The notes under the pieces: generated by a model
The model's database searches: none
The model's input: the letters and a program-made list of their open reading frames with translations, nothing else
What the model was told of the DNA's origin: nothing
Shown here: one piece after another, positions 8,712 through 62,376 of the stretch
Layout: every line of letters begins with the position of its first letter
How positions within the stretch are numbered: position 1 is the stretch's first letter
NCBI GenBank assembly: GCA_042090305.1
Contig: JBELJQ010000001.1
Location: forward strand, 107,967 to 171,966
Reading direction: 5' to 3'
DNA: 64,000 bases
From: Pelagibacteraceae bacterium
GTDB taxonomy: Bacteria > Pseudomonadota > Alphaproteobacteria > Methylaequorales > Methylaequoraceae
Position numbers and translations under genes: made by a program

Positions 8712-8757
8712 AGCTATGTTGACAAAGTAGTCAAAATAATTTTATTTGTTACACACT

Positions 8758-29701: not shown

Positions 29702-29788
29702 GCCCCTATGGCGGAATTGGTAGACGCGACGGATTCAAAATCCGTTGAACTTCGGTTCATGTCCGTTCGAGTCGGACTAGGGGTACCA
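29702..29788 (+). tRNA. tRNA-Leu (anticodon CAA), CCA encoded
   Basis: A cloverleaf can be drawn by hand. The acceptor stem is GCCCCTA/TAGGGGT. The anticodon stem is ACGGA/TCCGT with loop TTCAAAA (CAA at 29736-29738). The long variable arm is TGAAC-TTCG-GTTCA, the T arm is GTCCG-TTCGAGT-CGGAC, and the 3' end is A-CCA. Confidence 0.9.
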
Positions 29789-33360: not shown

Positions 33361-33365
33361 TTAAT

Positions 33366-41992: not shown

Positions 41993-42662
41993 TTAACTTT
42001 TTATTTGACCATCGAATAAATTTATTACTCTATCGCACTTTTTCGCTAAATTAGTGTTATGAGTTACTAAAAATAGACTGATTTTCTTTTTTTTAGAATA
42101 ATCAAATAGTAGATTAGAAACTATTTCTGTATTTTTTCTGTCTAAATTACCAGTAGGTTCATCTGCTAAAATGATTTCTGGGTTAAATGAAATCGCCCTT
42201 GCAATTGCGACTCTTTGTTGCTCTCCACCAGATAATTCAGAAGGTAAATTATCTTTACGATGGTCTAGACCAATTTCGGAAAGAATCAATGTAGCGTTCT
42301 CTTTTTCATTTTTAATTTTATTTATTTGCATTGGGAACATTATATTTTCGAGAGCTGTATAATTTGGAATCAGGTAAAACTGTTGAAACACTAATCCAAT
42401 TTTTTTTTTTTCTAATTGCAGTTTTTTGTTCCTCACTTATTTTAGAAAAGTCTTTATTTTCAAAAATTATTGAGCCTGATGAAGGGTTTTCTAAACCAGA
42501 CATAAGCATCAGGAGACTTGTTTTTCCTGAACCGCTCTCTCCAATTAAAGCAACTCTTTCATTTTTTTTTATTTCAAAATTTATATTTTTTAAAACCCTG
42601 ATATCATTTCCATTTAATTGGTAATTTAGGTTAATGTTATTTAGTTTATATAGTTCTTTCAC
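41993..42662 (-). pseudogene. YbbA/LolD-like ABC ATPase, frame broken in an A12 tract
   Basis: ORF 42318-42662 carries Walker A (GESGSGKTSLL) up to ...AIRKKK. ORF 41993-42436 continues KKKIGLVFQQFYLIP...LSGGEQQRVAIARA...ILADEPTGNLD...VTHN. Removing one A from the 12-A run joins them into one ABC ATPase of about 222 aa. Confidence 0.8.
42400..42411 (-). repeat. A12 homopolymer (T12 on + strand) inside the ABC ATPase gene
   Basis: Counted directly: t at 42400 through t at 42411. Confidence 0.9.
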
Positions 42663-43275
42663 TTTTAGATTACTTTTTGTATTGATTATTGGTGTAAACT
42701 TTATACCAACAAAAGGTTATTGTAACCAAAAAATTGTATTGTTTGGTGATAGCTTAATGTCTGGTTATGGACTAGAAAAAAAGTTTCATCTTTCAACTGT
42801 TTTAGAGACAAGTCTTAAAGAAAAAGATTTTGATATAAATGTCATAAATGCCAGTGTATCTGGAGACACAACTTCTGGTGGACTAAACAGGATGAACTGG
42901 TTGCTTGAACAAATTGATGTAGATATTGTTATACTATGCCTTGGAGCTAATGATATGTTAAGGGGAATTGAGCCTTATTTAATAAAAAGAAATTTGCAAA
43001 AGATCCTAGAAATTTTGAAAGAAAAAAATATAACTGTTCTTCTAGCCGGAATGCTATCTCAAGAAACATTTGGAGACGAATATAAAAATAAATTTGATAA
43101 GATATATCCCGATCTTGCAAAAAGTTTTCAAATTTCTTTTTTACCGTTTTTATTAGATGGCGTTGCCTTAAATACTGAATTAAATTTAAGTGATGGAAAG
43201 CACCCTAATCAAAAAGGTATCAAAATAATAAGTAAAAATCTTGAAAAAAAACTAGTTTATCTTCTTAAAAATTAA
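42634..43275 (+). CDS. SGNH/GDSL arylesterase/lysophospholipase (TesA-like)
   Basis: 213 aa with a leader peptide and the blocks FGDSLMSGYG, GANDMLRG and DGKHPN. It is divergent from the YbbA/YbbP-like genes, as in the E. coli tesA-ybbA-ybbP locus. The annotated 5' ends overlap by 29 nt. Confidence 0.8.
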   Translation: MLFSLYSSFTFRLLFVLIIGVNFIPTKGYCNQKIVLFGDSLMSGYGLEKKFHLSTVLETSLKEKDFDINVINASVSGDTTSGGLNRMNWLLEQIDVDIVILCLGANDMLRGIEPYLIKRNLQKILEILKEKNITVLLAGMLSQETFGDEYKNKFDKIYPDLAKSFQISFLPFLLDGVALNTELNLSDGKHPNQKGIKIISKNLEKKLVYLLKN

Positions 43276-46577: not shown

Positions 46578-48017
46578 ATGCTTTTTAATTCTATAGAATT
46601 TATCATTTTTTTTATATTTATCGCTCTGTTTCTCTTACTTTTGAGGAAAAATAAAGATATATCAATTTTGGTAATAATTTTTTTTTCTTTACTCTTTTAT
46701 GGTTATGAAAAAGCACAATGGATAATCTTAATTTTATTTTCGATATCTATCAACTACCTTTGTTCATATCTTATAAAAAAGAATGTAAAGTATATTTTTA
46801 ATTTCGGAATTATTTTTAATTTAGGAATTCTCTTTTTTTATAAATATCTTGGTTTTTTTTTCACAAATCTAAATTTTTTATTTGAACAAAACTTTTCTTA
46901 TTTAAATATTGCTCTTCCAATTGGTATATCATTCTATTCTTTTCAACAAATTTCATATTTATTTGATTGTAGGGAAAAAAAAAATAGCTTGCCAAGATTT
47001 AGTGAATACCTCTTATATGTCTCTTTTTTTCCACAATTAATTGCGGGTCCAATAGTGAAATCAAAAGATTTCTTTATTCAAGTTACAAAAAATTATTTTC
47101 TTAAACCCACAAAAATTATGGTGTTAAAAGGTATTACGATTTTCATAATTGGTTTATTCAAAAAAACATTTATCGCTGACAATATAGCAATTTTCTCAGA
47201 TGCAGTTTTTAATAACGCAAATTCAGGGACAATTGGTTTTCTTGATTCATGGATTGGTGTTTTTGCATTTTCACTTCAGATATATTTTGATTTTTCAAGT
47301 TATTCTGACATGGCAATTGGTCTTGGATTAATATTAGGTGTTAAACTACCAATCAATTTTAGTTCACCTTATAAATCAGAGAATATAATTGAATTCTGGA
47401 GATCATGGCATATTACACTATCAAATTTTTTAAGAGAATATTTATATATAAAAATTGGCGGAAATAGAAATGGTAGAATAAGAAATTTTATCAATTTTTT
47501 TATTGTTATGATACTTGGTGGAATATGGCATGGAGCTAGTTGGACTTTCGTATTATGGGGTGTTGTTCATGCTATATATATTTCTACTAATCATTTTATT
47601 ATTGATTTATTTCATAAATATCAAGTAAAGATAAAAATACCACAATTTATTAAAATTTTATTTACATTTTGTATTGTTTCTATTGCATGGGTCTTTTTTC
47701 GTTCTGAGAATTTAGAGATAGCAGTTAAAATGTTTGAAGCTATGTTTATACTTAAAAATTATCAAATTCTGAATATTTTGGACTACGATACAGCGATTGT
47801 GGCTTTTAAATGGATTTCAATACTTTTGATTATTTGTTGGTTTTTACCAAATACAAATTTTTTGATAAATTATAATAGTATAAATCAAAAAAATGAAAAA
47901 CCATTTTTAAATAAATACGTTACTTTGGATAAGCTTTTATTGGTGTTAAGCTTCCTTTTATTGATATCTGTTTTAACTTTCCAAGTAAAAAGTCCATTCC
48001 TTTACTTTAAATTTTAA
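46578..48017 (+). CDS. MBOAT-family membrane O-acyltransferase (AlgI/DltB/PatA-like)
   Basis: 479 aa, polytopic, with the conserved His block GGIWHGASWTFVLWG and WRSWHITLS. Confidence 0.85.
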   Translation: MLFNSIEFIIFFIFIALFLLLLRKNKDISILVIIFFSLLFYGYEKAQWIILILFSISINYLCSYLIKKNVKYIFNFGIIFNLGILFFYKYLGFFFTNLNFLFEQNFSYLNIALPIGISFYSFQQISYLFDCREKKNSLPRFSEYLLYVSFFPQLIAGPIVKSKDFFIQVTKNYFLKPTKIMVLKGITIFIIGLFKKTFIADNIAIFSDAVFNNANSGTIGFLDSWIGVFAFSLQIYFDFSSYSDMAIGLGLILGVKLPINFSSPYKSENIIEFWRSWHITLSNFLREYLYIKIGGNRNGRIRNFINFFIVMILGGIWHGASWTFVLWGVVHAIYISTNHFIIDLFHKYQVKIKIPQFIKILFTFCIVSIAWVFFRSENLEIAVKMFEAMFILKNYQILNILDYDTAIVAFKWISILLIICWFLPNTNFLINYNSINQKNEKPFLNKYVTLDKLLLVLSFLLLISVLTFQVKSPFLYFKF

Positions 48018-49368: not shown

Positions 49369-51105
49369 ATGTATATATTAGGAATCAATACAGGGTTAGG
49401 AGCATCAATTTGTCTTTTTAAAGATGGTAAGATTGAGTTTGCGATTGAGGATGAAAGAATCACAAAAAAAAAGAACTTTGGTGGCTTTCCAAGTGCTAGT
49501 CTTAAATATTTAAAAAAAAATTATTCAGCTCAGCTTAAGCATTTAGATTATTTATGTATTTGTGATAATCAAGATGTAACAGTAACCCTAGAACAAATGA
49601 TATCCAGATTTGAGTTTAGGTTCACTGAAAAAAAAAATTCCTTTTTCGATGATATTAAAAATATAGTAAAGATTTTTATACCCAATAATACTCTAGCTTG
49701 GATCTCTAAACCTCAAATAAAGAAACCCTTATTAGATAGAATAAAAAAAGAACTATCAGGATTAGATTTTAATAAAATTAAAGTAATGAGATTACAGCAT
49801 CACCTTTGTCATGCATCAGCTGCATATTTTGGCTTAGCAAAAAATATGAATAAAAAGTATTTAGTTTTTACCTTAGATGGCGGTGGTGATGGTGAGTGTG
49901 GTTCTATCAATATTGGATATAATGGAGATATAAAGAAAGTTTATAGTATTAGTAGTAAAAATAGTCTAGCTGCACTTTACTCATCTGTAACTTATCTGAT
50001 GGGATTTAAGCCACATGAACATGAATATAAAATCATGGGACTCGCCCCTTACACCTCAAAACTTTATACAAATGATATAAAAAAAATACTATACTCATTC
50101 CTTGATTTAGAAAAGGATGATGGTTTAGATTTTATTAATAAAGGTTCGGAAAAAAAACATCCTGGATTCGAACTAGGAAAAAAATTAAGACAAAAAAGAT
50201 TTGATAATATTGCCTTTGCTATTCAAGATTTCTCTGAGGAATTGACAATAAAGTGGATAAAAAGAGCCGTAAAAAAGTATAAGATTAATGATATTCTTCT
50301 TTCCGGTGGATTATTTATGAATATAAAAATAAATAAAATAATATCAGAATTACCTGAAATAAACTCCGTTGATGTTTTTCCTTCTTGCGGAGATGAAACA
50401 AACTCTTTAGGTATATCATTTTTTTGTCATTCAAAAATTAATAAACCAGAAGTATCATTACTAAAGAACTTCAACTTAGGGCCGGAACTAAATTTTAACG
50501 GGAAAAAAATACCTAATAAACTAAAGAAAAAATTTAAATTTGAAACTATTAAAACCAATAAGTATAAGAAAATAGCTGAACTTTTGGCAAAAGGTGAAGT
50601 TATCGGTAATTTAGAGGGTAGAATGGAATTTGGTGCTAGAGCACTCGGTAATAGGTCCCTTATAGCAGATCCAATAAATTCAGATGTAGTTGAAAAAATT
50701 AACTACCTCATAAAAAAGCGCGACTTTTGGATGCCATTTGCTCCTGCTATTTTGAGTGAAGATGCTTCAAAGTATATTTCAATACCATCAACGATTAAGA
50801 ACGGATCGCCATACATGATGTTTGGATTTGATTCAAAAATTAATCAACAGAAAAAAATGATTGCTGGTCTTCATAGAGTTGACAAAACAGCAAGGGCACA
50901 AATAGTGGATAAAAAAATATATCCAAATTTTCACAAATTATTATGTGAATTCAAAAAGCTGACAGGAAGATCCGTTTTGTTGAACACATCATTTAATCTG
51001 CATGGTGACCCTCTTGCACTAAACGAAAAGGATGCCTTTAAAGTATTAGAAAATTCTGAGCTAAAATATGTCTTCTTGGATGATGTATTAGTCTCAAGAA
51101 GATAG
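49369..51105 (+). CDS. carbamoyltransferase (NodU/CmcH/TobZ family)
   Basis: 578 aa with YILGINTG...DGKIEFAIEDERITKKKNFGGFP, LQHHLCHASAAYF, RMEFGARALGNRS and LLNTSFNLHGDP. Confidence 0.88.
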   Translation: MYILGINTGLGASICLFKDGKIEFAIEDERITKKKNFGGFPSASLKYLKKNYSAQLKHLDYLCICDNQDVTVTLEQMISRFEFRFTEKKNSFFDDIKNIVKIFIPNNTLAWISKPQIKKPLLDRIKKELSGLDFNKIKVMRLQHHLCHASAAYFGLAKNMNKKYLVFTLDGGGDGECGSINIGYNGDIKKVYSISSKNSLAALYSSVTYLMGFKPHEHEYKIMGLAPYTSKLYTNDIKKILYSFLDLEKDDGLDFINKGSEKKHPGFELGKKLRQKRFDNIAFAIQDFSEELTIKWIKRAVKKYKINDILLSGGLFMNIKINKIISELPEINSVDVFPSCGDETNSLGISFFCHSKINKPEVSLLKNFNLGPELNFNGKKIPNKLKKKFKFETIKTNKYKKIAELLAKGEVIGNLEGRMEFGARALGNRSLIADPINSDVVEKINYLIKKRDFWMPFAPAILSEDASKYISIPSTIKNGSPYMMFGFDSKINQQKKMIAGLHRVDKTARAQIVDKKIYPNFHKLLCEFKKLTGRSVLLNTSFNLHGDPLALNEKDAFKVLENSELKYVFLDDVLVSRR

Positions 51106-51113
51106 CTTTTATC

Positions 51114-52649
51114 TTAATTTATTTCATAAAGTACTAAAGAACCACTGCCTTCATAGCTGACCAGAAAAAAATATTTATCTAAAAACTTATCCTTCAAAAA
51201 AAACTGTCCCTCAGGACTATAATGTGGCAATTTTGTAGGAAGAAATTTTACATACTTTATTTCTTTTAAATCTGTTACATCATAAATAAAAAAACCATTT
51301 GATCTTTCTAGACCAATAATAGCATAGATCTTTTCTTTAAATTTTATTAAGTTTATAGTTTCTGGTTCTGGTCCCTTGTCATCACTTCTAGCATCAAAAA
51401 TCAGTTCATTCTTTTTTTTATCAAAAGATGTATTAAAATTTTCAGGAAATTTATCAGATAATATTTTCTCAAATTCATCCCCACTATCATAAAATAATTC
51501 TAATTTTGGTTTAATAAAAGATATTCCAAAGAACTTTAATCCACTGGTAAACTTCCATACAGAAAAGCTTCTAGCACCATATGAAAAAATATTATCAACT
51601 AAATCATCATTATTGACATCTGCATTGATTATAGAAACTTTTAAACGATTAACATCATCATCAATATTAGGAAATTTTTTATAAAATTCTTCATCAAGTT
51701 TAAGTTGAGAAATTCTTTTTTCTTCTGAAAAAAAACTATAATCTTTTGAATCACCCTCATTTGCAGTTGCTAGATAATATATTCCCCTGAACTTCTCATA
51801 GATCGTTCTTTTATTTGGTAGTGTTTGAATACCATCTGGTTGATATAACCCTTTGATTGGAAGTTTTTTTAGATTAGCGACTTTATCCTTATCGTTGGAA
51901 TCAATACCATATTTTAAATCTTCGAAAAGTTTTAAGCCTAGTGAATGTATCGAGTAAAAAGAATAATTAACATAATCAAAAACTGAGATAGCATTATTTT
52001 CTTGATTTACAACAAATATAAACTTTTCATCATGAGTTATTGATAAATATTCTGGCTCTAGGTCTTCGGCCAGGGGACCATTTTGAATTTTTCTAATTTC
52101 TTTATTATTATTAAAAAGTTTCATATCATATGTTTTTGATACTCTTTTACCCAAGTCAACGATAGATAACGAGCCCACTGGATTGTACTCTGACATACTA
52201 TTTGGTTCACCTTCATTTGCTGAGATTAGTTGATTTCCCAACTTATTAAAAGTAATCATATCTGGCATTACACCAACTTCAGACTTAAAAATAAAATCGT
52301 AATCTTTGTCAAAAAAAACTACATTTCCATTTTTAATTGGATTAAAGTTTTCCATAGCAACTGCTAAAACTTTCTCGCTATTTAAGTCAATACTATTTGG
52401 ACGCGATCCAAACTTTGAAAGATTGATTTGTTCAATTTTTTTCATATTTTGGTCAAAAACTTTAAATATATCAATACGGTTATATTTAGGGTTAGAAGAA
52501 AATATTAACTTCCTTTCATTATCATAAACTGCAATTTCGGTTGTTAGATTTTCATTCCAGTTAAATTCAGAAACAATCTTCATTTCAAATGCTAATGCTG
52601 AATTAAAATTAAATGTTAGTAATAAAAAAATTATGATTAAATGATTCAT
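51114..52649 (-). CDS. secreted choice-of-anchor-I / phytase-like beta-propeller protein
   Basis: 511 aa with a signal peptide and the blocks MPDMITF...ISANEGEP, LEPEYLSI, VVNQENNAISVFD, YQPDGIQ, LATANEGDSKDY, GARSFSVW and ARSDDKGPEPETI...IGLERSNGFFIYDVTD. Confidence 0.65.
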   Translation of the reverse strand: MNHLIIIFLLLTFNFNSALAFEMKIVSEFNWNENLTTEIAVYDNERKLIFSSNPKYNRIDIFKVFDQNMKKIEQINLSKFGSRPNSIDLNSEKVLAVAMENFNPIKNGNVVFFDKDYDFIFKSEVGVMPDMITFNKLGNQLISANEGEPNSMSEYNPVGSLSIVDLGKRVSKTYDMKLFNNNKEIRKIQNGPLAEDLEPEYLSITHDEKFIFVVNQENNAISVFDYVNYSFYSIHSLGLKLFEDLKYGIDSNDKDKVANLKKLPIKGLYQPDGIQTLPNKRTIYEKFRGIYYLATANEGDSKDYSFFSEEKRISQLKLDEEFYKKFPNIDDDVNRLKVSIINADVNNDDLVDNIFSYGARSFSVWKFTSGLKFFGISFIKPKLELFYDSGDEFEKILSDKFPENFNTSFDKKKNELIFDARSDDKGPEPETINLIKFKEKIYAIIGLERSNGFFIYDVTDLKEIKYVKFLPTKLPHYSPEGQFFLKDKFLDKYFFLVSYEGSGSLVLYEIN

Positions 52650-52706
52650 TATTTTATATTCTTAAAAATATGTTATTTTTTATGATATAATATACACCAA
52701 AATAAC

Positions 52707-53723
52707 ATGAAAAAAATTTTTTTTGGAATTATATTTTGCCTTTTCTTTCAGTTTTTTTTAGTAATAGCGATACTATTTTATAAGGGAGAAAAATCTTATG
52801 CTACTTATTATTACATAATTAGTTCATATCCAAACGTTATTACTCAAGGTTATTTAAAGAATGCAATTTATAATAAGTCAGTTGATGATTCTTTAGAACT
52901 TGTGAGAAGGCAATCTCGATTAATTTATTCAAATACTAATGAACAGATGGTTAAAGACCTTCTTATGAATACCTACAAGATATTTTATATACTTGATAGT
53001 AATGATGACTATAAAAAATTTAGTTTATGGTTAAAAGATCTTAGAAAATTCCTAGATAACGGTTATGGAGACTATCTTTTAAATTTTATAGAGTTTAAGA
53101 CAAATTATAAAGTAAATCAGGATAGAAAAATAAAAGATGAACTATTTAAGGAGATTAAAAGAGCTCATCCTGCGAACCCAAACATTTATAGAGACCATTT
53201 AATTGAAAGTTTTTTAAGTAAAGATATAAATAGGTCTATGGCACTTTGCAAAAATTATTATAATTCTTACCAGTTAACTCTTCCAATTGATTCTAAATAT
53301 AAAGTAAATGATCCAGATAACTTTAAAAATAAATTTTATTTAAAGACAGAAGATAATAAAAAAAATTTTTCTGATGAAATTAAGATAAATAAAATTTCAA
53401 ACTACATTTTTGAGGATAATTTTATTAAGAAAACTAGTTTAAAAGTTCATTTGAGATTAATGGAAGGTACAACTCTGATGCCATTCGAAATTACTTTTAT
53501 AAAAAATAATAATGTTAAAAAGAAATTCAATGTAGATGATTTAAATTTTTTTTCAAAGTATGGATACTTTCTTCAGGATAAATCATTTGTCTCTACAGGA
53601 AATCACTTAACAGATGAACTTTTAATTTTTCCAAATGAAAAATATTTTCCTGAAGCAGACAAAATAATTCTTAAATTAAAATTTTCTAAATTAAATATAT
53701 CGACAATAAATTGTAATGATTAA
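52707..53723 (+). CDS. N-terminally anchored hypothetical protein, first gene of the CotH/VTC operon
   Basis: 338 aa with one N-terminal TM segment and no recognisable domain. Its stop overlaps the CotH gene start (ATGATTAA). Confidence 0.5.
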   Translation: MKKIFFGIIFCLFFQFFLVIAILFYKGEKSYATYYYIISSYPNVITQGYLKNAIYNKSVDDSLELVRRQSRLIYSNTNEQMVKDLLMNTYKIFYILDSNDDYKKFSLWLKDLRKFLDNGYGDYLLNFIEFKTNYKVNQDRKIKDELFKEIKRAHPANPNIYRDHLIESFLSKDINRSMALCKNYYNSYQLTLPIDSKYKVNDPDNFKNKFYLKTEDNKKNFSDEIKINKISNYIFEDNFIKKTSLKVHLRLMEGTTLMPFEITFIKNNNVKKKFNVDDLNFFSKYGYFLQDKSFVSTGNHLTDELLIFPNEKYFPEADKIILKLKFSKLNISTINCND

Positions 53724-56346
53724 AATTTGGTTCAGCAAAATAAAATATTTTTTAGTATTATTTTTTCTACTTCTGCTCATTGAGCCGTTAGTATCTTTGT
53801 TATCCCAAACATTTTCTAATATAATCTCTGGGCAAGTAATTTACTACCGAGAGGGTAGATTAGATCCCTCCAGATGGTTAATAGGAGATTTTGTTCAAAA
53901 ATATTTCTCTGTTATAGATGAATTTAAGTTTATAGATAAAAATAAAAGGCTTGAAAAAGTAGATATATATGTAGATGAAGCAAAAATTAAATTACTTCAA
54001 TCAAAAGCACCGGTAGGTCATAGAAATTGGCAAAAAGCATTTTTAAAATATGAAAATAATGAAATTAATAGAATAAAAATAAGATTGCGTGGTGATAATG
54101 CAAGAAATTGGGATTTTAAGAAAAAATCAATTAAAATTAAAACAAGAAAAAAGAAACTCTTTAACGGCTACAGAGAATTATATTATTTGAATGCCCAAGA
54201 TAAAAATCAAATCAGAAATTTAATACCCAATATGATTGCAAAAAACATGGGGATTATTACACCGTTTTCAAGATTAGTTGAACTTCATCTTAATGGCGAA
54301 TATCTTGGCGTATATTTGGAAGTTTACAATACAGATGAACTATTTCTCAGAAAAAATAAGTCTATGCCAGTATCATCATACAAATTTAGTGTTGATTTAG
54401 ATTGGCTTTTTTATAGTTTTGAGCATGGTTTACTAAACCCATATTTATGGAGTAGACAGTCTAAAAATAATATGGATGAGGGTGACGATAGACCTTTATT
54501 AATAAATTTTCTAAACAAGTTTAATCAAAATAATGTCCTTTTTAAAGAATTTATTGATTTTGATGAATGGTCTAAATATGAAGCTTACAGATTAATTAGT
54601 GGTGATGACCATTCAAATGCTTTGAATAATTTAAAACTATTTGAAGATAATCATAAAGGTAAAATTTCAAATATCTTATGGGATCCAATCATAGATTATG
54701 AAAAATATGATGAGAGTTATCTAACTAGATGTAACTACTCCATTCCATGCAAACTTTTAGAAGATCCATTATTCAGATATAAAAGAATGAAATTTGTTTA
54801 TCAATTTATATTCGAAGAACGTGTTTACGAAAAAACTATTAATCAATTTAAGAACCAAGAGGAAAAAATTAGTAATTCATTATCTCTTGATAGGAATAGA
54901 CTTCAGTTTGTTGAAAATTCTAGAGATTTTCTTAAAGATTTCTTCTTACCTAAAGATTCAATAAAAAAAGAAATCTCAAAAGTTTATAGCTATCTAAATT
55001 ATAATTTGGAATTCTTTAAAGGTATATTCAATAAACCATTACAAGCAAAGTGGTTCCAAGATAAAAATATTATTAGAATAAATTTAGATGGTTTTAAACC
55101 CATTACAAATCTTATAATTAAATCAAAAAAAAAAATAGATAATGCTTACTACGATGTAAATAGTAATGGAATAATCGATGACGATGATTATAAGTTAAAT
55201 TTAAGTTATAAAAACAACAAAACCAATATTAATATCGTTCTTTTTTCTAAAAAAATTAATAGTACAATTAAGCATAAATTTCCTAATGGAACTAATTTTA
55301 TTCCAACTACTCATAATATAATACTTGATACAGAAAATGATATTAGCTCAATTTATTCTTATGATGAATTTAGAAAATTCAACCAAAAAATTAATAATTC
55401 AAGGATCAATTCTGATTACTTTCATGAAAATCAATTCTGGATATATAAAAAGATTAAACCGTTTATTATCTCTGAGGATATAAAGGTCTCGAAAAATTTG
55501 GTATTTGATAAACCTGTACAAATCAACGCAGGAGTAACCATATTTTTGGAAAATAACGCCAGTATCATATTTAAAAATAACCTACAAATTCTTGGAAATA
55601 AAAATAATCCTGTGAAATTCATAGCTGATTCTGATAATAATTTTGGAACAATCGCTATAGTTGGAAATAAATCAGCTAATTCTATAATCAATCATACTAT
55701 CTTTAAAAATGGTAGTGGCGCCATGAATATTGAAAATATTGATTTCATTTCTATGTTTTCATTAAATGACACTAATAATGTAAAAATCTCAAATGTAAGT
55801 TTTGAAAATAATAAAAAGTTTGATGATTTAATTCACATAATATATTCGAATAATATAAAACTTCAAAATGTAACAATTAAAAATGCTAATCTTGATGCAA
55901 TAGATATTGATTTATCAGAAGTTGAAATTAAAAACTTAAATATTAGGAATGCAGGGAATGATTGTCTAGATTTGATGACTTCAAAAGTTAAAGTGGTTAA
56001 CTCCAAACTCAAGAATTGCGGTGATAAAGGGGTTTCTGTCGGTGAGGATTCTAAATTAGAACTTAAAGGAACAGAAATAGAATACTCCAAGATTGGAATT
56101 GAAGTTAAAGATAATTCAGAAGCTACAATCGCCGAAACAATCTTCAATAATAATGACAAACAAATCAATTCGTACACCAAAAATTGGATGTATGGAATGG
56201 ATGGAGCAAATATTTATATCAATGATTGTGAATTTATTTCAAGTTCTATTAATAAATTTAAAACTGTTGATGAAACAAAAATTCAAATTGTAGATAGTAC
56301 CTTTGAAGGAGGTATTGAAAAATCAGAAAATGTTAATATAAAGTAA
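53716..56346 (+). CDS. CotH-kinase-like protein with N-terminal TM anchor and C-terminal parallel beta-helix
   Basis: 876 aa with CotH-type blocks (DFKKKSIKIKTRKKKLFNGYRELYYLNAQDKNQIRN, VELHLNGEYLGVYLEVYNTDE, GDDHSNALNNLKLFEDNHKGKISNILWDP). Residues from about 600 to 876 form repetitive beta-helix turns (NVTIKNANLDAIDI, NLNIRNAGNDCLDL, LKNCGDKGVSV). Confidence 0.75.
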   Translation: MIKIWFSKIKYFLVLFFLLLLIEPLVSLLSQTFSNIISGQVIYYREGRLDPSRWLIGDFVQKYFSVIDEFKFIDKNKRLEKVDIYVDEAKIKLLQSKAPVGHRNWQKAFLKYENNEINRIKIRLRGDNARNWDFKKKSIKIKTRKKKLFNGYRELYYLNAQDKNQIRNLIPNMIAKNMGIITPFSRLVELHLNGEYLGVYLEVYNTDELFLRKNKSMPVSSYKFSVDLDWLFYSFEHGLLNPYLWSRQSKNNMDEGDDRPLLINFLNKFNQNNVLFKEFIDFDEWSKYEAYRLISGDDHSNALNNLKLFEDNHKGKISNILWDPIIDYEKYDESYLTRCNYSIPCKLLEDPLFRYKRMKFVYQFIFEERVYEKTINQFKNQEEKISNSLSLDRNRLQFVENSRDFLKDFFLPKDSIKKEISKVYSYLNYNLEFFKGIFNKPLQAKWFQDKNIIRINLDGFKPITNLIIKSKKKIDNAYYDVNSNGIIDDDDYKLNLSYKNNKTNINIVLFSKKINSTIKHKFPNGTNFIPTTHNIILDTENDISSIYSYDEFRKFNQKINNSRINSDYFHENQFWIYKKIKPFIISEDIKVSKNLVFDKPVQINAGVTIFLENNASIIFKNNLQILGNKNNPVKFIADSDNNFGTIAIVGNKSANSIINHTIFKNGSGAMNIENIDFISMFSLNDTNNVKISNVSFENNKKFDDLIHIIYSNNIKLQNVTIKNANLDAIDIDLSEVEIKNLNIRNAGNDCLDLMTSKVKVVNSKLKNCGDKGVSVGEDSKLELKGTEIEYSKIGIEVKDNSEATIAETIFNNNDKQINSYTKNWMYGMDGANIYINDCEFISSSINKFKTVDETKIQIVDSTFEGGIEKSENVNIK

Positions 56347-56352
56347 TTAATA

Positions 56353-57054
56353 ATGCAAAAGTTTGAGAGATATGAGTTTAAGTATGTCATTCCAGATGAA
56401 CTCTGTTTCAGGATTGAAGAACATCTATCAAATTTCATGAAATTTGACTATTTCTCAAAAAAAAATAAATCTAACAGCTACTTTGTAAGATCTCTTTATT
56501 ATGAAAATGAGCAAAATAATAATTTTTATGATAAAATTGACGGAATTAAGTATAGAGAAAAATATAGATTTAGGACATATGAGAAGAAATTTAATAAAAA
56601 TATCTACCTTGAAAAAAAAATTAAAAATAATGAAAGAGTTTTTAAAAACAGAATTAGTATAACATCACAACAATTTAAAAAGATAATAAACGAAAATTTT
56701 TACTCATTGGTAAATAAAATGGAAGAAAAACAATTTCTAAAAGAATTTATATTTAAAGTGTTAAAGAATAGAGAATCACCTAAAATAGTAATTGATTATG
56801 TTAGAAAACCGTATATAAATGAAGATGATCAACATTTCAGAATAAGTATAGATTCGGAACTTACTGCAAGAGATATTGATTTAAATTTTGCTAAAAAATG
56901 TTTGCCAGGATATAGAATTATTGAAGTAAAATTTTACAGAAGAATACCACTATGGTTTCATAGAATTGTCCAATCCTATAATCTACGAAGAGTCAGTATC
57001 TCGAAATTTGTGGTAGGTATGAAATGTATGAATTACGCAACTGATTTGTCATAA
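56353..57054 (+). CDS. VTC-domain (polyphosphate-polymerase-type triphosphate tunnel) protein
   Basis: 233 aa with the N-terminal R-x-E-x-K-Y motif (RYEFKY) and the blocks FVRSLYYEN, YREKYRFRTY, IYLEKKIK, FRISIDSEL, IIEVKF and SISKF. It starts 6 nt after the CotH gene. Confidence 0.75.
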   Translation: MQKFERYEFKYVIPDELCFRIEEHLSNFMKFDYFSKKNKSNSYFVRSLYYENEQNNNFYDKIDGIKYREKYRFRTYEKKFNKNIYLEKKIKNNERVFKNRISITSQQFKKIINENFYSLVNKMEEKQFLKEFIFKVLKNRESPKIVIDYVRKPYINEDDQHFRISIDSELTARDIDLNFAKKCLPGYRIIEVKFYRRIPLWFHRIVQSYNLRRVSISKFVVGMKCMNYATDLS

Positions 57055-57059
57055 ACATT

Positions 57060-57746
57060 ATGAATGAAATTATACAGCAAGCTCAAGAATTCAATTACTC
57101 GTCAATAGAGATTATAAATAATCTACTTCTAAGTTGTGTATTTGGAGTTATCATTAGTACACTTTATAAATCTACTCATAAAGGCCTAAGTTACTCTCAA
57201 TCCTTTATGTTAACCATTGTATTTGTAACTGTTATTGTATGTATGACAATGATGGTTATTGGAAATAGTCTGGCAAGAGCATTTGCTTTGGTTGGAGCTC
57301 TATCAATAATAAGGTTTAGAACTGTAGTAAAAGATACTAAAGATACATCTTATGTTTTTTTTGGTCTAGCAGCTGGTATGGCTGCAGGGACCTCTAACTA
57401 CTTTCTTGGTTGTTTTGGTGTTTTAATAATTAGTATTTTAGCGATTATTCTTCATAATATAAATTATGGTAGTATTTATAAAAGTGAAATTATTCTTCGA
57501 TTTAGAGCTGATTTTGGGGTAAATAATGGAACCTACGGGAAGGTTTTGGATAAGTATACACTCCAGTCAAATATTTTACATATTGAACCCACTCACCCCA
57601 AATCAAAAACTAAGTCAAATTTAATCAACTTTGATCTTGTAATGAAAAAGGATGCAAATCTGGAATTGTTATCAAAGGATATTTCTGAAATAAAAGGTAT
57701 AAGTGAAATTAAATTAATTGCATCAAAATCTGACGTCGAGTATTAA
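57060..57746 (+). CDS. DUF4956-family membrane protein
   Basis: 228 aa with about four TM segments, the hallmark motif LARAFALVGALSIIRFRTVVKDTKD and a soluble C-terminal domain. It starts 5 nt after the VTC gene. Confidence 0.7.
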   Translation: MNEIIQQAQEFNYSSIEIINNLLLSCVFGVIISTLYKSTHKGLSYSQSFMLTIVFVTVIVCMTMMVIGNSLARAFALVGALSIIRFRTVVKDTKDTSYVFFGLAAGMAAGTSNYFLGCFGVLIISILAIILHNINYGSIYKSEIILRFRADFGVNNGTYGKVLDKYTLQSNILHIEPTHPKSKTKSNLINFDLVMKKDANLELLSKDISEIKGISEIKLIASKSDVEY

Positions 57747-57753
57747 ATAATTT

Positions 57754-58470
57754 TCACTTTTTTTTTATTATAAACAAATTATTATCTTTCTGTTCAAAAT
57801 CATTCGATAAATCAAAAAAGTAATATCTATAACTAAGTTGGCTAAAGTATTCTAAAAATTTTTTTTTATCTTTATCATAAACATCCTCAATTATAAATAA
57901 CCCATCATTACTTAAAAAATTTATTGAATTTAAAAAAAATATTATTGTTCCCTCAAATTGATGACATCCATCATCAATAATAAGATCAAAATTTTTTATT
58001 TTTATTTGATTCCACATCCTTTTAATAGAGACCGCTGAAAACTGATCTACTTTTAGGGTTTTAATCCTTTTTTCAATAAACATAGTTTTAGGATCTATGT
58101 CACCACCATAAATTCTTGCGTTGGGAAAATAGTCACGCCAGACTCGAAGAGATGCTCCTGGTTTTGAAACTCTTTTAAGTCCATCCTTAAAGACTTTATT
58201 TGTTCCTATGCCCAATTCAAAGACATTCTTTATTTTCGATTTTTGATTAGAAAAAAGAAAGTTATAAATATCTGTGTAATTATGTGGCTTCCATGTTATG
58301 AAATCTTTATAGTCTTTAAAATATCCTTTATCACATCCATATTTTCTGCATAGATCGTTTAGTTCGTTGGGTATGTCATTATAATCTACCTTGATTGAAC
58401 CTAGATTATTATTTGTTTTCAAAAATAGTCTAGCAAAAAGTGATTTGATATTTTCAATATTTAGTTTCAT
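57754..58470 (-). CDS. class I SAM-dependent methyltransferase
   Basis: Contains VFELGIGTN, GGDIDP, DLIIDDGCH and LFIIEDV. The ATG at 58470 is preferred. Confidence 0.65.
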   Translation of the reverse strand: MKLNIENIKSLFARLFLKTNNNLGSIKVDYNDIPNELNDLCRKYGCDKGYFKDYKDFITWKPHNYTDIYNFLFSNQKSKIKNVFELGIGTNKVFKDGLKRVSKPGASLRVWRDYFPNARIYGGDIDPKTMFIEKRIKTLKVDQFSAVSIKRMWNQIKIKNFDLIIDDGCHQFEGTIIFFLNSINFLSNDGLFIIEDVYDKDKKKFLEYFSQLSYRYYFFDLSNDFEQKDNNLFIIKKK

Positions 58471-58611
58471 TTTCAACAAATTTAAAATATATCTGCATTA
58501 TTCTTACATATATTTGAAAATTTAGTCTAACTATCATTTTTATTATTAGATTTTAATTGAAGAATTTTATCTACTAACAGTTTTTATACTAAAGTAGATC
58601 TTGTAAATATA

Positions 58612-58926
58612 TTAGTGATAGACTTTTGGACGTTCATCATCTTCATTACTAATCTCGATTGGCTTATCTTTACACGAACATAAGTTACTCGCTTTGATTT
58701 GTGCTTTCACAAAGGCTCTGTCAGATTCTCTTAAAATTCTATGCATTATATATTTTGATACCGATAGCTTCTTGTTTATCGGTCTGTCTGACTTTGATAG
58801 GGTTCTAATCAAAGATTCATATTTTGCGTGAATTAGTTTTCTTTTAATAATAACACCTTCAATAAGCTCAATGATTTGATTTGGTAAACCTTTATCAGAT
58901 TCTTTTCTAAAAAGTTTTCTAAACAT
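58612..58926 (-). CDS. hypothetical protein downstream of the TonB-dependent receptor
   Basis: 104 aa, basic, with no recognisable motif. Confidence 0.4.
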   Translation of the reverse strand: MFRKLFRKESDKGLPNQIIELIEGVIIKRKLIHAKYESLIRTLSKSDRPINKKLSVSKYIMHRILRESDRAFVKAQIKASNLCSCKDKPIEISNEDDERPKVYH

Positions 58927-58946
58927 TCTCTCAATAAATTGTATTC

Positions 58947-59005
58947 CCGGGTAATAACACTTAGATAATATGTGGAAGGAATATGTCTTTTATCTTATTA
59001 CCCGG
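58947..59005 (-). terminator. long intergenic hairpin after the receptor gene
   Basis: CCGGGTAATAA (58947-58957) pairs with TTATTACCCGG (58995-59005), with an inner AGATAA/TTATCT extension. No clear U-tract follows, so its role as a terminator or processing site is uncertain. Confidence 0.35.
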
Positions 59006-59011
59006 AAAACT

Positions 59012-61312
59012 CTAGTTAAAGAGCGAATCAAAGCTTGCCACAGCTTTAATATAAGCTGAAAGTGGCGCACCCGCTCTCGCACCCGTAGGATGCCTTGATG
59101 ATATATATGCAAGGTCAGTTGCGTTATTAACGCCAGCAACAACCCTGTAATTATCGTTTATTTTGTACCCACCTCTTAAATTTAAGAGGAATGCAGAGTC
59201 AATTCTTCCCGCTCGTGCATTAGGACTACCAATAGATTCCTCGGTCTCTGTTTCCTCAGCAGTACCGTATGTTTCTGAGTGGTAAGTCATATTAATTCCA
59301 AAATCAAATTTATTAATTTGATAGTCAGCACCGAATGAAAGTACGTGCTCAGGAATGTATGGTACATTTGAACCATCACGGCCACCCGCAAATATAGACT
59401 CAGTATCTGTTGTGGTTGAGTCACCGTCAAGATTTGCATTTGTAAACGTGTAGTTGGCAAAAAACGAAATATCACCAACACCTAATAGATTATCAGGACT
59501 ATATACTGTTGATAATTCAAGTCCTTTTGAAACTACGTTACCACCATTATCAGGAGAGCCACCAGCATTGGTGTTGTCAATAACAATAACATCTTTAAAG
59601 TCAGTGTGGAAACCAGTTACAGACATAGCTAAGTCATTATCTCCGTATCTAACACCAATCTCTTTAGCAATACTTTTCTCTGGGTTAAGTGGGCTCCCAT
59701 CATCTCTTGAAGCACTTGGACCAGCAGTGTTGAAACCTTTGTATACACCAGCAAACCATTGCCAATTTTCATCATGGTTATAAAGTAACCCACCGCCTGG
59801 AACAAATGCCCAAGTTTCTTCTTTCAGATTACTTGTTGTACCCATTGTAGCAGCTTTGTCTCTGTAATGCTGATCTAGGAATTCAAGTCTAGAGCCAAAG
59901 GACACTACAAAGTTATTGATTGTTGCAGCTTCTTCAAAGTAAAGTGCATAACCTTCTGTGGACTCGTTTCGGTCATCCGCTTGAGCAACACTTACTCCAG
60001 TTAATTGACCTCCTACAGCCTGTGTGAATGTGTGGGTTTGCTGATCTCTATTAATTTTGTCATAATGATATTTGAAACCAAATTTGAAATCATGACCTAT
60101 ATTCTTTCCAAAGAAGTCTGTATTGAATCTTAGATCCGTTTCATTTTTAATACCATAAGCAGCATATTGTCTATCATTATTCTTATATGTGATATTACCA
60201 GCTGCTAAGCCCTTGAAAATATCAAGATTTCCAGCAACCGTATTGGCCTTTGAAAGGATTGTTTGCTGTGAAACACTATTCACTTTACTCAACTTAAACC
60301 AGTCTCTGTAAAAACCGTTATAATAAACTGTCAAGTTGTTGCTAACGTTTTTATTAAAGTCAGATCTAAATTTTGCGTAGTAAGTATATGCGTTAGAATT
60401 CATTTGATCCAATTGACTCGCAACATACCTTTGATATGGGTCAGCATTGAAATCAGCCGTTGTTAATCCAGCGTATCCTTCATTATAGTCTAATGAGTTG
60501 TATGACGCCTTGATTTCTAATGTGTTATTCATCGTGGTTGGAAGTTGCCATAATAGCTTTACCATTGGATTAAATTGTTGTAATCCGCCAGCATCATCAC
60601 TGCCGTAACCTTTTCTATTTACTCCAGTGCCTGGTTCCACATTAAAGTCATGAAAACCATCATTTTCTCTGTAGTAAATTTCCCCAAGCATTGCTAGGGC
60701 ACCAAAGTCACCAGATATTCCATAATTAGCGTAACCATGTGTTACTTTATCGTTAAAAGATCCATATGAAGTTCTTAAATAATACTTTTCACCCAACTCT
60801 ACCGGAGTTGTCTGATAGTTTATAACACCACCAGTGGTATGAGGACCGTATCTAAATTGACTAGTACCTTTCAGTACTTCTATTGAATGCATTTTACCTG
60901 CTAGTGGTGAATAATATGCATCAGGTGCAGAATAAGGTGCAGGTGCAATATTGACTTCATCTTCCATCATTGTAATTGCAGCAGACCTTAACGTGTTAAC
61001 ACCTCTCAAACTAATATTAGGGAAAATACCAAATCCAGCTTCTTCTCTAGAATATACACCTGGTGTATTTCTCAGTATATTGTTGATGTTATCAAAGTTA
61101 TATTTTCTGATCTCCTCAGCAGGAATATAATCACCAGAGCCCGGCAGATTAAATGGTTGGTCAGGTGTAACAAAAATATTTACATCAGGAGCAACATAAG
61201 ACAATTGCTCCTGAGTATTTGCTTGATTAATCATAGTTATGATTGAAAGGAATGTTAACCATGACATTCTGCGGGTATATTTTGGTACCAACCAAGAAGT
61301 TTTTTTCTTCAT
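59012..61312 (-). CDS. TonB-dependent outer-membrane receptor
   Basis: 766 aa with a signal peptide, a plug domain (NILRNTPGVYSREE...ISLRGV...IEVLKGTSQFRYGPHTTGGVINYQT) and a long beta-barrel rich in Y/G/N/F. Its base composition is visibly more G+C-rich than its neighbours. Confidence 0.88.
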   Translation of the reverse strand: MKKKTSWLVPKYTRRMSWLTFLSIITMINQANTQEQLSYVAPDVNIFVTPDQPFNLPGSGDYIPAEEIRKYNFDNINNILRNTPGVYSREEAGFGIFPNISLRGVNTLRSAAITMMEDEVNIAPAPYSAPDAYYSPLAGKMHSIEVLKGTSQFRYGPHTTGGVINYQTTPVELGEKYYLRTSYGSFNDKVTHGYANYGISGDFGALAMLGEIYYRENDGFHDFNVEPGTGVNRKGYGSDDAGGLQQFNPMVKLLWQLPTTMNNTLEIKASYNSLDYNEGYAGLTTADFNADPYQRYVASQLDQMNSNAYTYYAKFRSDFNKNVSNNLTVYYNGFYRDWFKLSKVNSVSQQTILSKANTVAGNLDIFKGLAAGNITYKNNDRQYAAYGIKNETDLRFNTDFFGKNIGHDFKFGFKYHYDKINRDQQTHTFTQAVGGQLTGVSVAQADDRNESTEGYALYFEEAATINNFVVSFGSRLEFLDQHYRDKAATMGTTSNLKEETWAFVPGGGLLYNHDENWQWFAGVYKGFNTAGPSASRDDGSPLNPEKSIAKEIGVRYGDNDLAMSVTGFHTDFKDVIVIDNTNAGGSPDNGGNVVSKGLELSTVYSPDNLLGVGDISFFANYTFTNANLDGDSTTTDTESIFAGGRDGSNVPYIPEHVLSFGADYQINKFDFGINMTYHSETYGTAEETETEESIGSPNARAGRIDSAFLLNLRGGYKINDNYRVVAGVNNATDLAYISSRHPTGARAGAPLSAYIKAVASFDSLFN

Positions 61313-61327
61313 AAGAAATCTTCTTGA

Positions 61328-61348
61328 AATTAATAATTATTATCAATC
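61328..61348. promoter_or_regulatory. Fur-box-like AT-rich palindrome (proximal)
   Basis: AAATTAATAATTATTATCAAT contains hexamers related to GATAAT/ATTATC and lies 16-36 nt upstream of the receptor start. Confidence 0.3.
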
Positions 61349-61373
61349 TAATGTATTTTTCTTGGATGTCAAT

Positions 61374-61392
61374 GATAATGATTATTAATTTC
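61374..61392. promoter_or_regulatory. Fur-box-like site (distal)
   Basis: GATAATGATTATTAATTTC matches the 19-bp consensus GATAATGATAATCATTATC at 14 of 19 positions, including the first 9 in a row. Confidence 0.4.
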
Positions 61393-61539
61393 ATTTTTTT
61401 TTACAATGACTGCGGTCTTTAATTTATACTCCCCCTAGTTAATAAAGTTAGACTCTATTAAAAAAATAGTAATATTTTAAAAAAATATCATATAAAATAA
61501 TGCCATAAATTTTATGATTTAATCAGTCTGAGAGACCAT

Positions 61540-62376
61540 ATGAAGATAATAAACATAATGAAAATAAAAAATATTTTAATAGAAAATACAAAAAAACTGA
61601 ACAAATTATCCGTTATTTGTATTTTATCAACATGTATTTTAGTTATCTTCTTTCTTTTGAAAGATCCACACGAAAAAAAAGATATTGAATTAAAAAAAAC
61701 AGAAATTGAGATTACCGATTCATTAATTGAAGAGGTACCTACTAAGGTAGACGAACGTCAGTTATCAGTAAAAACTGATGCTAAAAAAAAAGCAAATGTG
61801 GAAAAAAAAACACCGCCTGTAGTAATATCAAAGAAAAAGTTGGAATCCAAAAAAATAGTAAAGGAGCCCAAAGATATTGTTCAGAATCTGCACAATGGCC
61901 TTATATCTATCAGACCAAAACAAACGGGAAATTTGGATAAAATTACTGTTCTCATTCAAAATACTTATAGAGTAGAAAAGATGTTAAGTTTGATTATTGG
62001 TAAAGAGTGGAAAAATGTAAGCATTAAAAAAAGAAACCAACTAGTAAATGTATTTACCGAGTATATTTCCAAAAATTACATTAGAAGATTTATAAAAATC
62101 AAAAAACCTATATTTACGACTAATGAAACTAAAGATGTTGGAAAAAATTATAAAATGGTTAAAACACAATTAATTGTTGGCAATGAGACGGTTTCTGTTA
62201 ATTATTTACTAAATGAAGTTAATGGTTATTGGAAAATTTTCGATGTTTTATTAGCCGGTTCAGTAAGCGAAATAGCAACCAAAAAATCTGAATTTGCTTC
62301 CTTCATATCAAAAAATAATGTGGATTCTCTTATTGAAGCAATTACAAAAAAAAATAAGATTCTATTGAGTGAATAG
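61540..62376 (+). CDS. MlaC/Ttg2D-like lipid-binding protein with N-terminal anchor and Lys-rich linker
   Basis: 278 aa with a TM segment, then a K/E-rich ~70 aa linker. The MlaC-like blocks are GKEWKNVSIKKRNQLVNVFTEYISKNYIRRF and WKIFDVLLAGSVSEIATKKSEFASFI...VDSLIEAI. Confidence 0.55.
   Translation: MKIINIMKIKNILIENTKKLNKLSVICILSTCILVIFFLLKDPHEKKDIELKKTEIEITDSLIEEVPTKVDERQLSVKTDAKKKANVEKKTPPVVISKKKLESKKIVKEPKDIVQNLHNGLISIRPKQTGNLDKITVLIQNTYRVEKMLSLIIGKEWKNVSIKKRNQLVNVFTEYISKNYIRRFIKIKKPIFTTNETKDVGKNYKMVKTQLIVGNETVSVNYLLNEVNGYWKIFDVLLAGSVSEIATKKSEFASFISKNNVDSLIEAITKKNKILLSE

Follow-up and report, generated by a model that had tools for sequence, protein, structure and literature searches.

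A conserved VTC, DUF4956 and CotH/beta-helix gene module in a Pelagibacteraceae contig: a candidate bacterial polyphosphate system linked to surface polymers

Introduction

The closest described relatives of the locus studied here are found in Gram-positive bacteria, where cotH, a "poly-phosphate polymerase" gene, DUF4956 and DUF4832 are conserved together as accessory genes directly adjoining pel operons (Whitfield et al. 2020, PMC7112168). The present locus is a module of four genes at positions 52707-57746 of a 64-kb stretch (64,000 nucleotides, hereafter the window) of a Pelagibacteraceae bacterium (assembly GCA_042090305.1, contig JBELJQ010000001.1, positions 107,967 to 171,966). It combines a CotH-type protein, a VTC-domain protein and a DUF4956 membrane protein with a fourth protein, and is considered as a candidate system for making polyphosphate (polyP) and using it at the cell surface.

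In Streptococcus intermedius the CotH, VTC and DUF4956 genes are SIR_1594, SIR_1593 and SIR_1592, each of which has been deleted (preprint 2024; mBio 2025, PMC12345266). SIR_1593 was modelled as a Vtc4-like tunnel with its catalytic residues intact, SIR_1592 was described as an MgtC-type transmembrane (TM) region with a cytoplasmic ACT domain, and SIR_1594 was described as secreted. Deletion of SIR_1592 raised Pel, deletion of SIR_1594 lowered it, and aggregation was altered; the trio was said not to occur outside Pel loci (PMC12345266). VTC and CotH genes are also carried by NELoc-2 of Clostridium perfringens.

Marine and polyP reviews treat VTC as eukaryotic. In yeast Vtc4, the triphosphate and Mn ligands are K200, R264, R266, K281, Y359, R361, E426, S457 and K458, all nine of which are needed for polyP to accumulate, and only K458 among them has no counterpart in the inactive Vtc2/3 (cryo-electron microscopy preprint). 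For CotH, the D228Q and D251A variants of the Bacillus subtilis protein are catalytically dead, as reported in a paper later than the 2016 CotH kinase study.

Results

Four co-directional open reading frames (ORFs) on the + strand make up the module. Gene 1 (52707-53723, 338 aa) falls in no Pfam family and is predicted to be membrane-anchored, with a TPR-like and a beta-sandwich part. Gene 2 (53716-56346, 876 aa) combines a putative signal-anchor with a CotH kinase-like domain and a right-handed beta-helix. Gene 3 (56353-57054, 233 aa) encodes a soluble VTC protein resembling the central domain of Vtc4, a putative triphosphate-tunnel enzyme and candidate polyP polymerase, and gene 4 (57060-57746, 228 aa) encodes a DUF4956 protein predicted to be polytopic in the membrane. 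The junctions, read directly, consist of an 8-nt overlap between genes 1 and 2 (ATGATTAA), a 6-nt spacer between CotH and VTC (ttaata) and a 5-nt spacer between VTC and DUF4956 (acatt). This is the tightly packed arrangement that a sequence-only reading of the window had described, and the motifs which it quoted (RYEFKY, YREKYRFRTY, IIEVKF and ALVGALSIIRFRTVVKD) are all present in the translations. Its assignments to CotH, VTC, DUF4956 and Beta_helix were likewise returned by Pfam, with the scores given below for each protein. No similarity to PPK was found in any of the four proteins with Pfam and NCBIfam.

The module was found to be conserved well beyond the window. A species-representative genome scan for VTC gave 23 loci, with families called by phmmer and, for the divergent gene 1, by an iterated hidden Markov model (HMM). 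These loci came from Rhodospirillales, Pelagibacteraceae (including Ca. P. ubique HIMB058), Nitrospina, Nitrosomonadaceae, Gammaproteobacteria, Bacteriovoracales and Magnetococcales. All four families were adjacent in every genome locus with enough flank (about 20 loci), and three gene orders occurred among them. The gene order of the window recurs in a Rhodospirillaceae metagenome-assembled genome (MAG; locus L003), where the module lies amid GT4 glycosyltransferases, while a Pelagibacteraceae genome (L005) has the order DUF4956-gene 1-CotH-VTC with housekeeping genes on its flanks. At locus L001, the closest relative, whose VTC is 81% identical to that of the window, all four genes are present and DUF4956 is inverted and convergent with VTC (8745-9431, - strand, versus 57060-57746, + strand, in the window). 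Since DUF4956 is inverted there, its co-transcription with VTC is not obligatory, while the adjacency of the two is kept.

Independently, metagenome contigs were scanned with DUF4956 as the seed, which gave 80 loci. VTC was present in all 16 loci flanked on either side by 4.5 kb or more, and in 34 of 37 when the limit was set at 900 nt. Of the three exceptions, at least two (L047 and L061) have a DUF4956-first order, which puts VTC several kb downstream, past the end of these short contigs; the third is L073. CotH was detected with the marine HMM in 13 of the 16 well-flanked loci and with Pfam in one more.

Outside the marine loci, plasmids of Pseudobutyrivibrio and Planococcus carry neighbouring genes annotated as CotH kinase, polyphosphate polymerase domain and DUF4956. 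In Pseudobutyrivibrio these genes are part of a polysaccharide cluster with GT2, GT4, acyl- and pyruvyl-transferases, and the Planococcus copy is followed downstream by a HEAT-repeat protein and one glycosyltransferase. Two plasmid records without annotation, from Nonomuraea and Paenibacillus, had their ORFs called with our own HMMs and Pfam. The Nonomuraea plasmid reads VTC-DUF4956-CotH. In Paenibacillus cellulosilyticus (L037, 4721-10356) VTC-DUF4956 comes after a divergent histidine kinase/response regulator pair, and the place of CotH is taken by a Cthe_2159-family carbohydrate-binding protein. A Bacteroidota-type metagenome contig (L112, 1308-8635) has VTC-DUF4956, then a GH3 glycosidase and a 1193-aa CotH protein with lamin-tail and chitobiase C-terminal domains and a type IX secretion system (T9SS; Por_Secre_tail) sorting signal.

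Chance adjacency of the four genes is ruled out by the synteny in the genome loci and in 16 of 16 metagenome loci. The co-occurrence of VTC, DUF4956 and CotH across bacteria, which the sequence-only reading had named as a check, is borne out by the survey. Because synteny is conserved across phyla with the gene order permuted, the four genes are almost certainly functionally linked. VTC and DUF4956 are the invariant unit, accompanied by a third partner that is predicted to be exported and is usually CotH.

In four loci the CotH/beta-helix or VTC frame was split into two overlapping ORFs (L013, 7192-9980; L028, 5721-6459; L071, 2556-5242; L085, 307-1054). These splits could be assembly errors in single-cell or MAG data, or they could reflect pseudogenisation.

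The VTC protein matched Pfam VTC (PF09359) with an E-value of 6e-42 and 144 bits against a cut-off of 23, residues 5-226 of 233 aligning with positions 1-234 of the 235-position model. Its only relative in the PDB by phmmer was Vtc4 (3g3q/5iiq), at a remote similarity (E 4e-4). In the phmmer alignment the nine yeast Vtc4 ligands correspond, in order, to K10, R72, R74, K89, Y149, R151, E191, S217 and K218, each of them either invariant in 32 relatives or conserved to at least 90%. The conservation of these ligands, including the K458 equivalent, supports polyP polymerase activity without proving it, and we regard this activity as somewhat favoured for the protein. It has no hydrophobic segment and no SPX domain.

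Relatives of the VTC protein come mostly from marine metagenomes, and the few named ones are annotated as Pelagibacteraceae or Alphaproteobacteria; none was found in a scan of viral contigs. Within the GTDB-representative genome collection no protein was more than 44% identical to it, and identical copies of its gene occur in many marine plankton assemblies. These copies show a marine-plankton provenance; the oligotroph from phosphate-poor water that the sequence-only reading had assumed is not established by them.

Gene 4 matched Pfam DUF4956 (E 2.6e-12) and no other Pfam family, MgtC included. With NCBIfam, residues 74-218 gave a weak match to MgtC/SapB (NF007431; E 7e-4, 19.2 bits against a cut-off of 214). 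Hydropathy indicates three clear helices and about two weaker ones, with a TM region at residues 18-132 and a soluble C-terminal domain at about 140-228. Residues 35-100 are almost invariant in the marine family. Within them lies the motif G79-A-L-S-I-I-R85-F-R87-T-x-x-K91-D92-x-x-D95 (57294-57344, +), and this GALSIIRFRTxxKDxxD signature, with R85, R87, K91, D92 and D95, is universal in DUF4956 across phyla.

The CotH domain of gene 2 (PF08757; E 2.8e-12, 47 bits against a cut-off of 23.8) covers residues 122-405 (54079-54930, +). Against Bacillus cereus CotH (5jd9) the E-value was 3e-9 with the single sequence and 1.3e-16 with the family profile. Alignment to this solved structure places the catalytic-loop region at H299-D323 (54610-54684, +), with B. 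subtilis D228 and D251 taken to be D224 and D247 of the 5jd9 chain on account of their 23-residue spacing. N305 and D323 are invariant in the marine family and align with N229 and D247 (the D251 of B. subtilis) of the B. cereus protein. The position of the catalytic Asp, D228 of B. subtilis, is occupied by H299 in the window. Among the 22 marine members it holds His in 13, Gln in three, Ser in two, and Asn, Pro and Phe in one each. An Asp lies two residues past this position in 10 of the 22, the window not among them. The WDxD motif has lost its second Asp. The canonical N-x-D and WDxD/N motifs were present in 8 of 8 CotH partners from other phyla. Because the position of the catalytic Asp is variable and non-Asp, kinase activity of the marine CotH is uncertain; of the CotH-type kinase that the sequence-only reading had named, the domain stands and the catalytic Asp does not.

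Gene 2 has a single hydrophobic segment by hydropathy, at N-terminal residues 12-30, and a TM-like segment at this end occurs in 20 of the 22 members of the CotH/beta-helix family, the two exceptions being truncated ORFs. It is therefore predicted to be an anchored protein outside the cytoplasm.

When the C-terminal 330 aa were scanned alone, they matched Beta_helix (PF13229) at 7e-17. In the family, PF13229 was found in 21 of 21 members, NosD in 12 of 21 and GH28 in 3 of 21, along with some pectate-lyase-like matches. The domain (55522-56208, +) displays a ladder of about 25 invariant charged or polar residues, which on successive rungs form the motifs DD..H (D703, D704, H707), D..D.D (D727, D730, D732), ND..D (N748, D749, D752), DK..S.GE (D770, K771, S774, G776, E777), KD.S (K798, D799, S801) and KN..Y (K822, N823, Y826). 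Such a ladder resembles an active site or a groove for binding a polymer or cations. A profile search of the PDB gave no meaningful solved relative of the beta-helix, its best match being ribosomal protein S9 (E 0.09), and no catalytic family could be assigned from Pfam, the PDB profile search or hhalign. By hhalign, the marine beta-helix also had no specific relation to the Paenibacillus Cthe_2159-family protein. The recurrence of beta-helices across these systems is thus one of fold class only.

Gene 1 had no match in Pfam or NCBIfam. A word-indexed protein database returned two matches with the single sequence and four with a 20-sequence profile, so that an exhaustive search of representatives was needed to recover the family, which comprises 143 representative clusters among 1.84 billion proteins, all of about 330-360 aa. 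An AlphaFold2 model built from an alignment of 80 sequences reached a predicted local distance difference test score (pLDDT) of 91.1 and a predicted template modelling score of 0.83; it supersedes an earlier model from five sequences, for which pLDDT was 60 and Foldseek was uninformative. The model consists of a TM helix (2-26), helical repeats (about 28-185) and a beta-sandwich (about 209-328). Foldseek matched it to a MamA-type TPR with probability 1.0 and a root-mean-square deviation of 4.1 A over 143 columns, while the C-terminal domain gave weak CBM3-like matches only.

A single hydrophobic segment, at N-terminal residues 4-22, was seen by hydropathy, and 78 of 80 members of the family have a TM-like segment at this end. 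The protein is predicted to be anchored and extracytoplasmic; for both gene 1 and CotH the N-terminal anchoring proposed in the sequence-only reading is upheld as a prediction. Y161, R162, C181 and C336 are near-invariant, the median protein has two Cys, and the pair fits a putative disulfide in an oxidising compartment. Gene 1 lies directly 5' of CotH in every locus with flank. In four metagenome loci (L051, L052, L077 and L091) the stop-to-stop CotH/beta-helix ORFs are much longer, at about 960-1525 aa, and no match to the gene 1 HMM was found; in these loci gene 1 may be part of a fusion, may have been replaced or may have diverged too far.

Upstream of the module, a promoter-like site (TTAAAA-18-TGnTATAAT, 52662-52691, +) lies in the 57-nt divergent intergenic region 5' of gene 1. 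It is the best + strand match of the region (10/12, with an extended -10 TG); promoter-like matches are no commoner in this AT-rich region than in its shuffles, and the evidence for the site is positional. No intrinsic terminator was found at the module, and a convergent gene ends 7 nt away from the stop codon of DUF4956.

The first 24 kb of the window hold housekeeping functions at a GC content of 30-35%. GC falls to 0.24-0.30 at about 24000-58000, compared with 0.30-0.36 at 1-24000 and 58000-62000. The low-GC stretch contains genes for an FkbM methyltransferase (27371-28102), tRNA-Leu(CAA) (29702-29788), a TPR-sulfotransferase (29989-31716), a GDSL hydrolase (42634-43275), an MBOAT protein (46578-48017) with a coupled 379-aa gene, the pair lying 5 kb 5' of the module, and a carbamoyltransferase (49369-51105). 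By these predicted functions it is a putative surface-polymer modification neighbourhood, and it may be a variable "glycosylation island".

Next to the module, a gene for a choice-of-anchor I family protein (51114-52649, -; NCBIfam 4e-103) is divergent from gene 1. L001, though syntenic in other respects, lacks this gene and has the carbamoyltransferase gene abutting gene 1; the choice-of-anchor I gene is therefore not part of the module. Downstream follow genes for a 241-aa protein with a weak methyltransferase-like match (57754-58479, -), which sits elsewhere in L001, and for a 104-aa basic protein (58612-58926, -), which is kept in L001 and in other contigs with an identical VTC gene. A TonB-dependent receptor gene (59012-61312) lies 1.3 kb downstream of the module on the opposite strand. 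The flanking ORFs scanned also included MlaC. No pel genes or DUF4832 were found among the window ORFs scanned, which did not include every small ORF.

Elsewhere in the window, a glutamine riboswitch (RF01739, 31865-31915, +; 59.5 bits against a gathering score of 35) lies directly 5' of an operon at 31954-35131 for circularly permuted ATP-grasp, Alpha-E domain and transglutaminase-like proteins. Its position directly upstream suggests that this three-gene set is under glutamine control.

Discussion

The arrangement considered here runs from the cytoplasm to the cell exterior. The predicted topology puts VTC inside, DUF4956 in the membrane, and the CotH/beta-helix protein and gene 1 outside. 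The soluble VTC would be a Vtc4-type triphosphate-tunnel enzyme, most likely polymerising polyP from nucleoside triphosphate (NTP) on the cytoplasmic face of the membrane. It would work as an obligate pair with the MgtC-like DUF4956, which may tether VTC, regulate it or both, and which would hand over polyP or phosphoryl groups at the outer side of the cytoplasmic membrane. Outside, the TPR/beta-sandwich protein may act as scaffold and polymer binder, and the CotH-like/beta-helix protein would bind the product or make use of it on a polymer of the cell surface, probably a glycan, with the threaded polyP chain supplying the phosphoryl donor to the exported phosphotransferase. There is no ATP outside the cell, and export of polyP is appealing because it would give an exported phosphotransferase a donor.

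The chain as a whole, from cytoplasmic polyP synthesis through membrane handover to a donor or ligand for the exported CotH/beta-helix machinery, is put forward tentatively, as a possibility that falls short of even odds. Export through DUF4956, a role for which nothing ties this protein to a Vtc1-type channel, is rather unlikely when judged by itself. The split synthase-plus-conduit layout of the sequence-only reading is thus pure inference, and its mechanism as a whole is plausible but partly supported. Several lines of evidence are consistent with the chain. The third partner is predicted to be extracytoplasmic in every lineage, by a signal-anchor in the marine proteins, a T9SS domain in L112 and secretion in S. 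intermedius. A role at a surface polymer is supported by the glycan context, seen in the modification genes of the window, the GT4 genes of L003, the glycosyltransferases of the Firmicute plasmids and the pel loci of Gram-positive bacteria. The effects of CotH and DUF4956 deletion on Pel level and aggregation in S. intermedius also count in its favour.

A number of points weigh against this interpretation. Deletion of SIR_1593, the VTC gene of S. intermedius, had no phenotype under the conditions tested (PMC12345266), and no bacterial protein with a VTC domain has a known biochemical activity in the literature searched. Phosphotransfer or kinase activity is doubtful for the marine CotH domain, since its canonical catalytic Asp is missing. 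VTC-DUF4956 also occurs without detectable CotH, in Paenibacillus L037 and in at least two metagenome loci. The bacterial VTC family has a near-invariant Glu, E8, in "RYEFK". This residue resembles what we take to be half of the ExExK motif of hydrolytic CYTH enzymes, a likeness that makes triphosphatase activity conceivable for the VTC protein. No similarity of DUF4956 to the Vtc1-type channel was detected with Pfam or NCBIfam, and since Pfam gives DUF4956 alone and NCBIfam a weak MgtC/SapB match, the two are probably not homologous. To our knowledge, MgtC is not known to transport anything.

The same observations can be accommodated by a membrane-tethered polyP store or capsule, in which polyP from VTC and DUF4956 would be kept at the membrane, in the periplasm or at the surface as a reserve of phosphorus and cations. 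The acidic ladder would then bind polyP via divalent cations, the TPR protein would organise it, and the CotH-like domain would be a binding module or pseudokinase. Conserved catalytic residues in VTC are expected of such a store, and so is a marine CotH that has lost its canonical Asp and is joined to an invariant ladder; the Paenibacillus pair, accompanied by a Cthe_2159-family carbohydrate-binding protein in place of CotH, points the same way. However, none of the catalytic residues is missing from the CotH partners of other phyla, an argument for real phosphotransfer in the ancestral system. Binding of polyP by the ladder is moreover a supposition, and the marine beta-helix shares no specific similarity with the Cthe_2159 protein. 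A store or capsule is considered quite unlikely. If VTC were instead a tri- or polyphosphate hydrolase or a sensor, it could tune ATP/Pi or the output of polysaccharide secretion together with an MgtC-like ACT-domain protein, and the exported CotH/beta-helix and TPR proteins would be ordinary polysaccharide-modifying or scaffold proteins under the control of this pair. Such regulation would agree with the weak MgtC/SapB match of DUF4956 and the description of its S. intermedius homologue as MgtC plus ACT, with the opposite effects of DUF4956 and CotH deletion on Pel, with the retention of the CYTH-like E8, and with the two-component system that adjoins the pair in Paenibacillus. It is hard to reconcile with the completeness of the Vtc4 ligand set, in which the Lys typical of polymerase-active subunits is kept, and with loci such as Pelagibacteraceae L005, where VTC-DUF4956 adjoins secreted partners and no polysaccharide synthase lies nearby; regulation of this kind is given a low probability.

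A locus for polysaccharide foraging, with the beta-helix as a secreted lyase or hydrolase serving the TonB-dependent receptor and with VTC/DUF4956 as unrelated neighbours, would explain the GH28, NosD and pectate-lyase-like matches in some family members and the presence of the receptor gene 1.3 kb downstream, in L001 as in the window. But this gene is on the opposite strand and is absent near the module in the other gene-called loci, L003 and L005, and the four genes remain neighbours in different phyla and in different gene orders. A TonB-linked foraging locus was rejected on these synteny grounds and is very improbable.

With regard to earlier work, the sequence-only reading had stated that the module lacked experimental characterisation. 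This holds for biochemistry, but the trio was described in 2020 and its genes were deleted in S. intermedius in 2025; with the core trio already present in the literature and in NCBI product names, the claim of novelty was overstated. What is new is a Pel-independent, four-gene Gram-negative variant of the cassette, its previously undescribed TPR/beta-sandwich partner, the combination of a divergent CotH catalytic loop with an invariant beta-helix ladder in the marine family, and the occurrence of the module in abundant marine lineages, those of SAR11 type among them. The statement that the trio is confined to Pel loci (PMC12345266) is contradicted by the marine, actinobacterial and plasmid loci. 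The comparative data describe an obligate VTC+DUF4956 unit with a third partner that is, by prediction, always exported, in a cassette that is not specific to Pel, and Planococcus, Pseudobutyrivibrio, Nonomuraea and Streptococcus are cultivable carriers of it.

Should VTC be a real polyP polymerase, polyP synthesis in bacteria would not be limited to PPK1/PPK2, and marine surveys in which VTC counts as exclusively eukaryotic would overlook a bacterial pathway or assign it wrongly. Should its product also cross the membrane, this would be the first donor supply for extracytoplasmic phosphorylation in bacteria, and it would explain why CotH "kinases" are so often secreted. Abundant ocean bacteria, SAR11 among them, would gain a pathway for envelope polyP or phospho-modification, which marine phosphorus studies now attribute only to PPK in bacteria and to VTC4 in eukaryotes. 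In its broadest form, this is the proposal that bacteria have a third, Vtc4-type polyP route which, with DUF4956, delivers polyP or phosphoryl groups outside the cytoplasmic membrane and so solves the no-ATP problem for secreted CotH-family enzymes, including those of SAR11; in that breadth we hold it to be unlikely.

Comparison with known systems

The bacterial VTC protein shares with eukaryotic VTC (3g3q, 8i6v) the full-length Pfam domain, all nine ligands and the pairing of a soluble, putative tunnel domain with a membrane component. It differs in having neither SPX nor a fused TM domain, in its length of 233 aa and in the extra Glu, E8. The membrane partner is DUF4956, which is MgtC-like, rather than a Vtc1-type three-helix subunit, and the far-side compartment would be the periplasm or exterior instead of a vacuole. 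Compared with PPK1/PPK2, the proposed product would be the same, polyP from NTP, while fold and mechanism are unrelated.

In the Gram-positive Pel cassette, as in the module, CotH, VTC and DUF4956 are contiguous, and their predicted locations agree: CotH is secreted, VTC stays in the cytoplasm, and DUF4956 sits in the membrane with a soluble C-terminus. The module, unlike the cassette, has no pel or DUF4832 among the scanned ORFs and is always accompanied by the TPR/beta-sandwich gene; its CotH is fused to a beta-helix rather than to FN3 and has no catalytic Asp, and its marine hosts are Gram-negative. The Bacillus spore-coat Ser/Thr kinase CotH (5jd9) has the same CotH fold by sequence, and the Lys, the Asn (N229 in B. 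cereus) and the metal-binding Asp (D247 in B. cereus) are kept in gene 2, which in contrast is predicted to be exported and membrane-anchored, is fused to a beta-helix and has His299 in place of B. subtilis D228. DUF4956 resembles MgtC/SapB in its small polytopic N-terminal region and soluble C-terminal domain, but it scores far below the cut-off of that family (19 against 214 bits), and it has its own invariant motif and an obligate VTC neighbour.

A functional analogy can be drawn with systems of the AlgI/DltB/PatA type, in which an MBOAT-type protein acts with periplasmic transferases and an activated donor is moved across the membrane for the modification of an extracytoplasmic polymer. 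There is no homology between these systems and the module, and the donor here would be phosphate or polyP, for which the searched literature holds no bacterial precedent. What the two would have in common is a cytoplasmic donor step, a polytopic membrane protein, an anchored periplasmic enzyme and TPR scaffolds.

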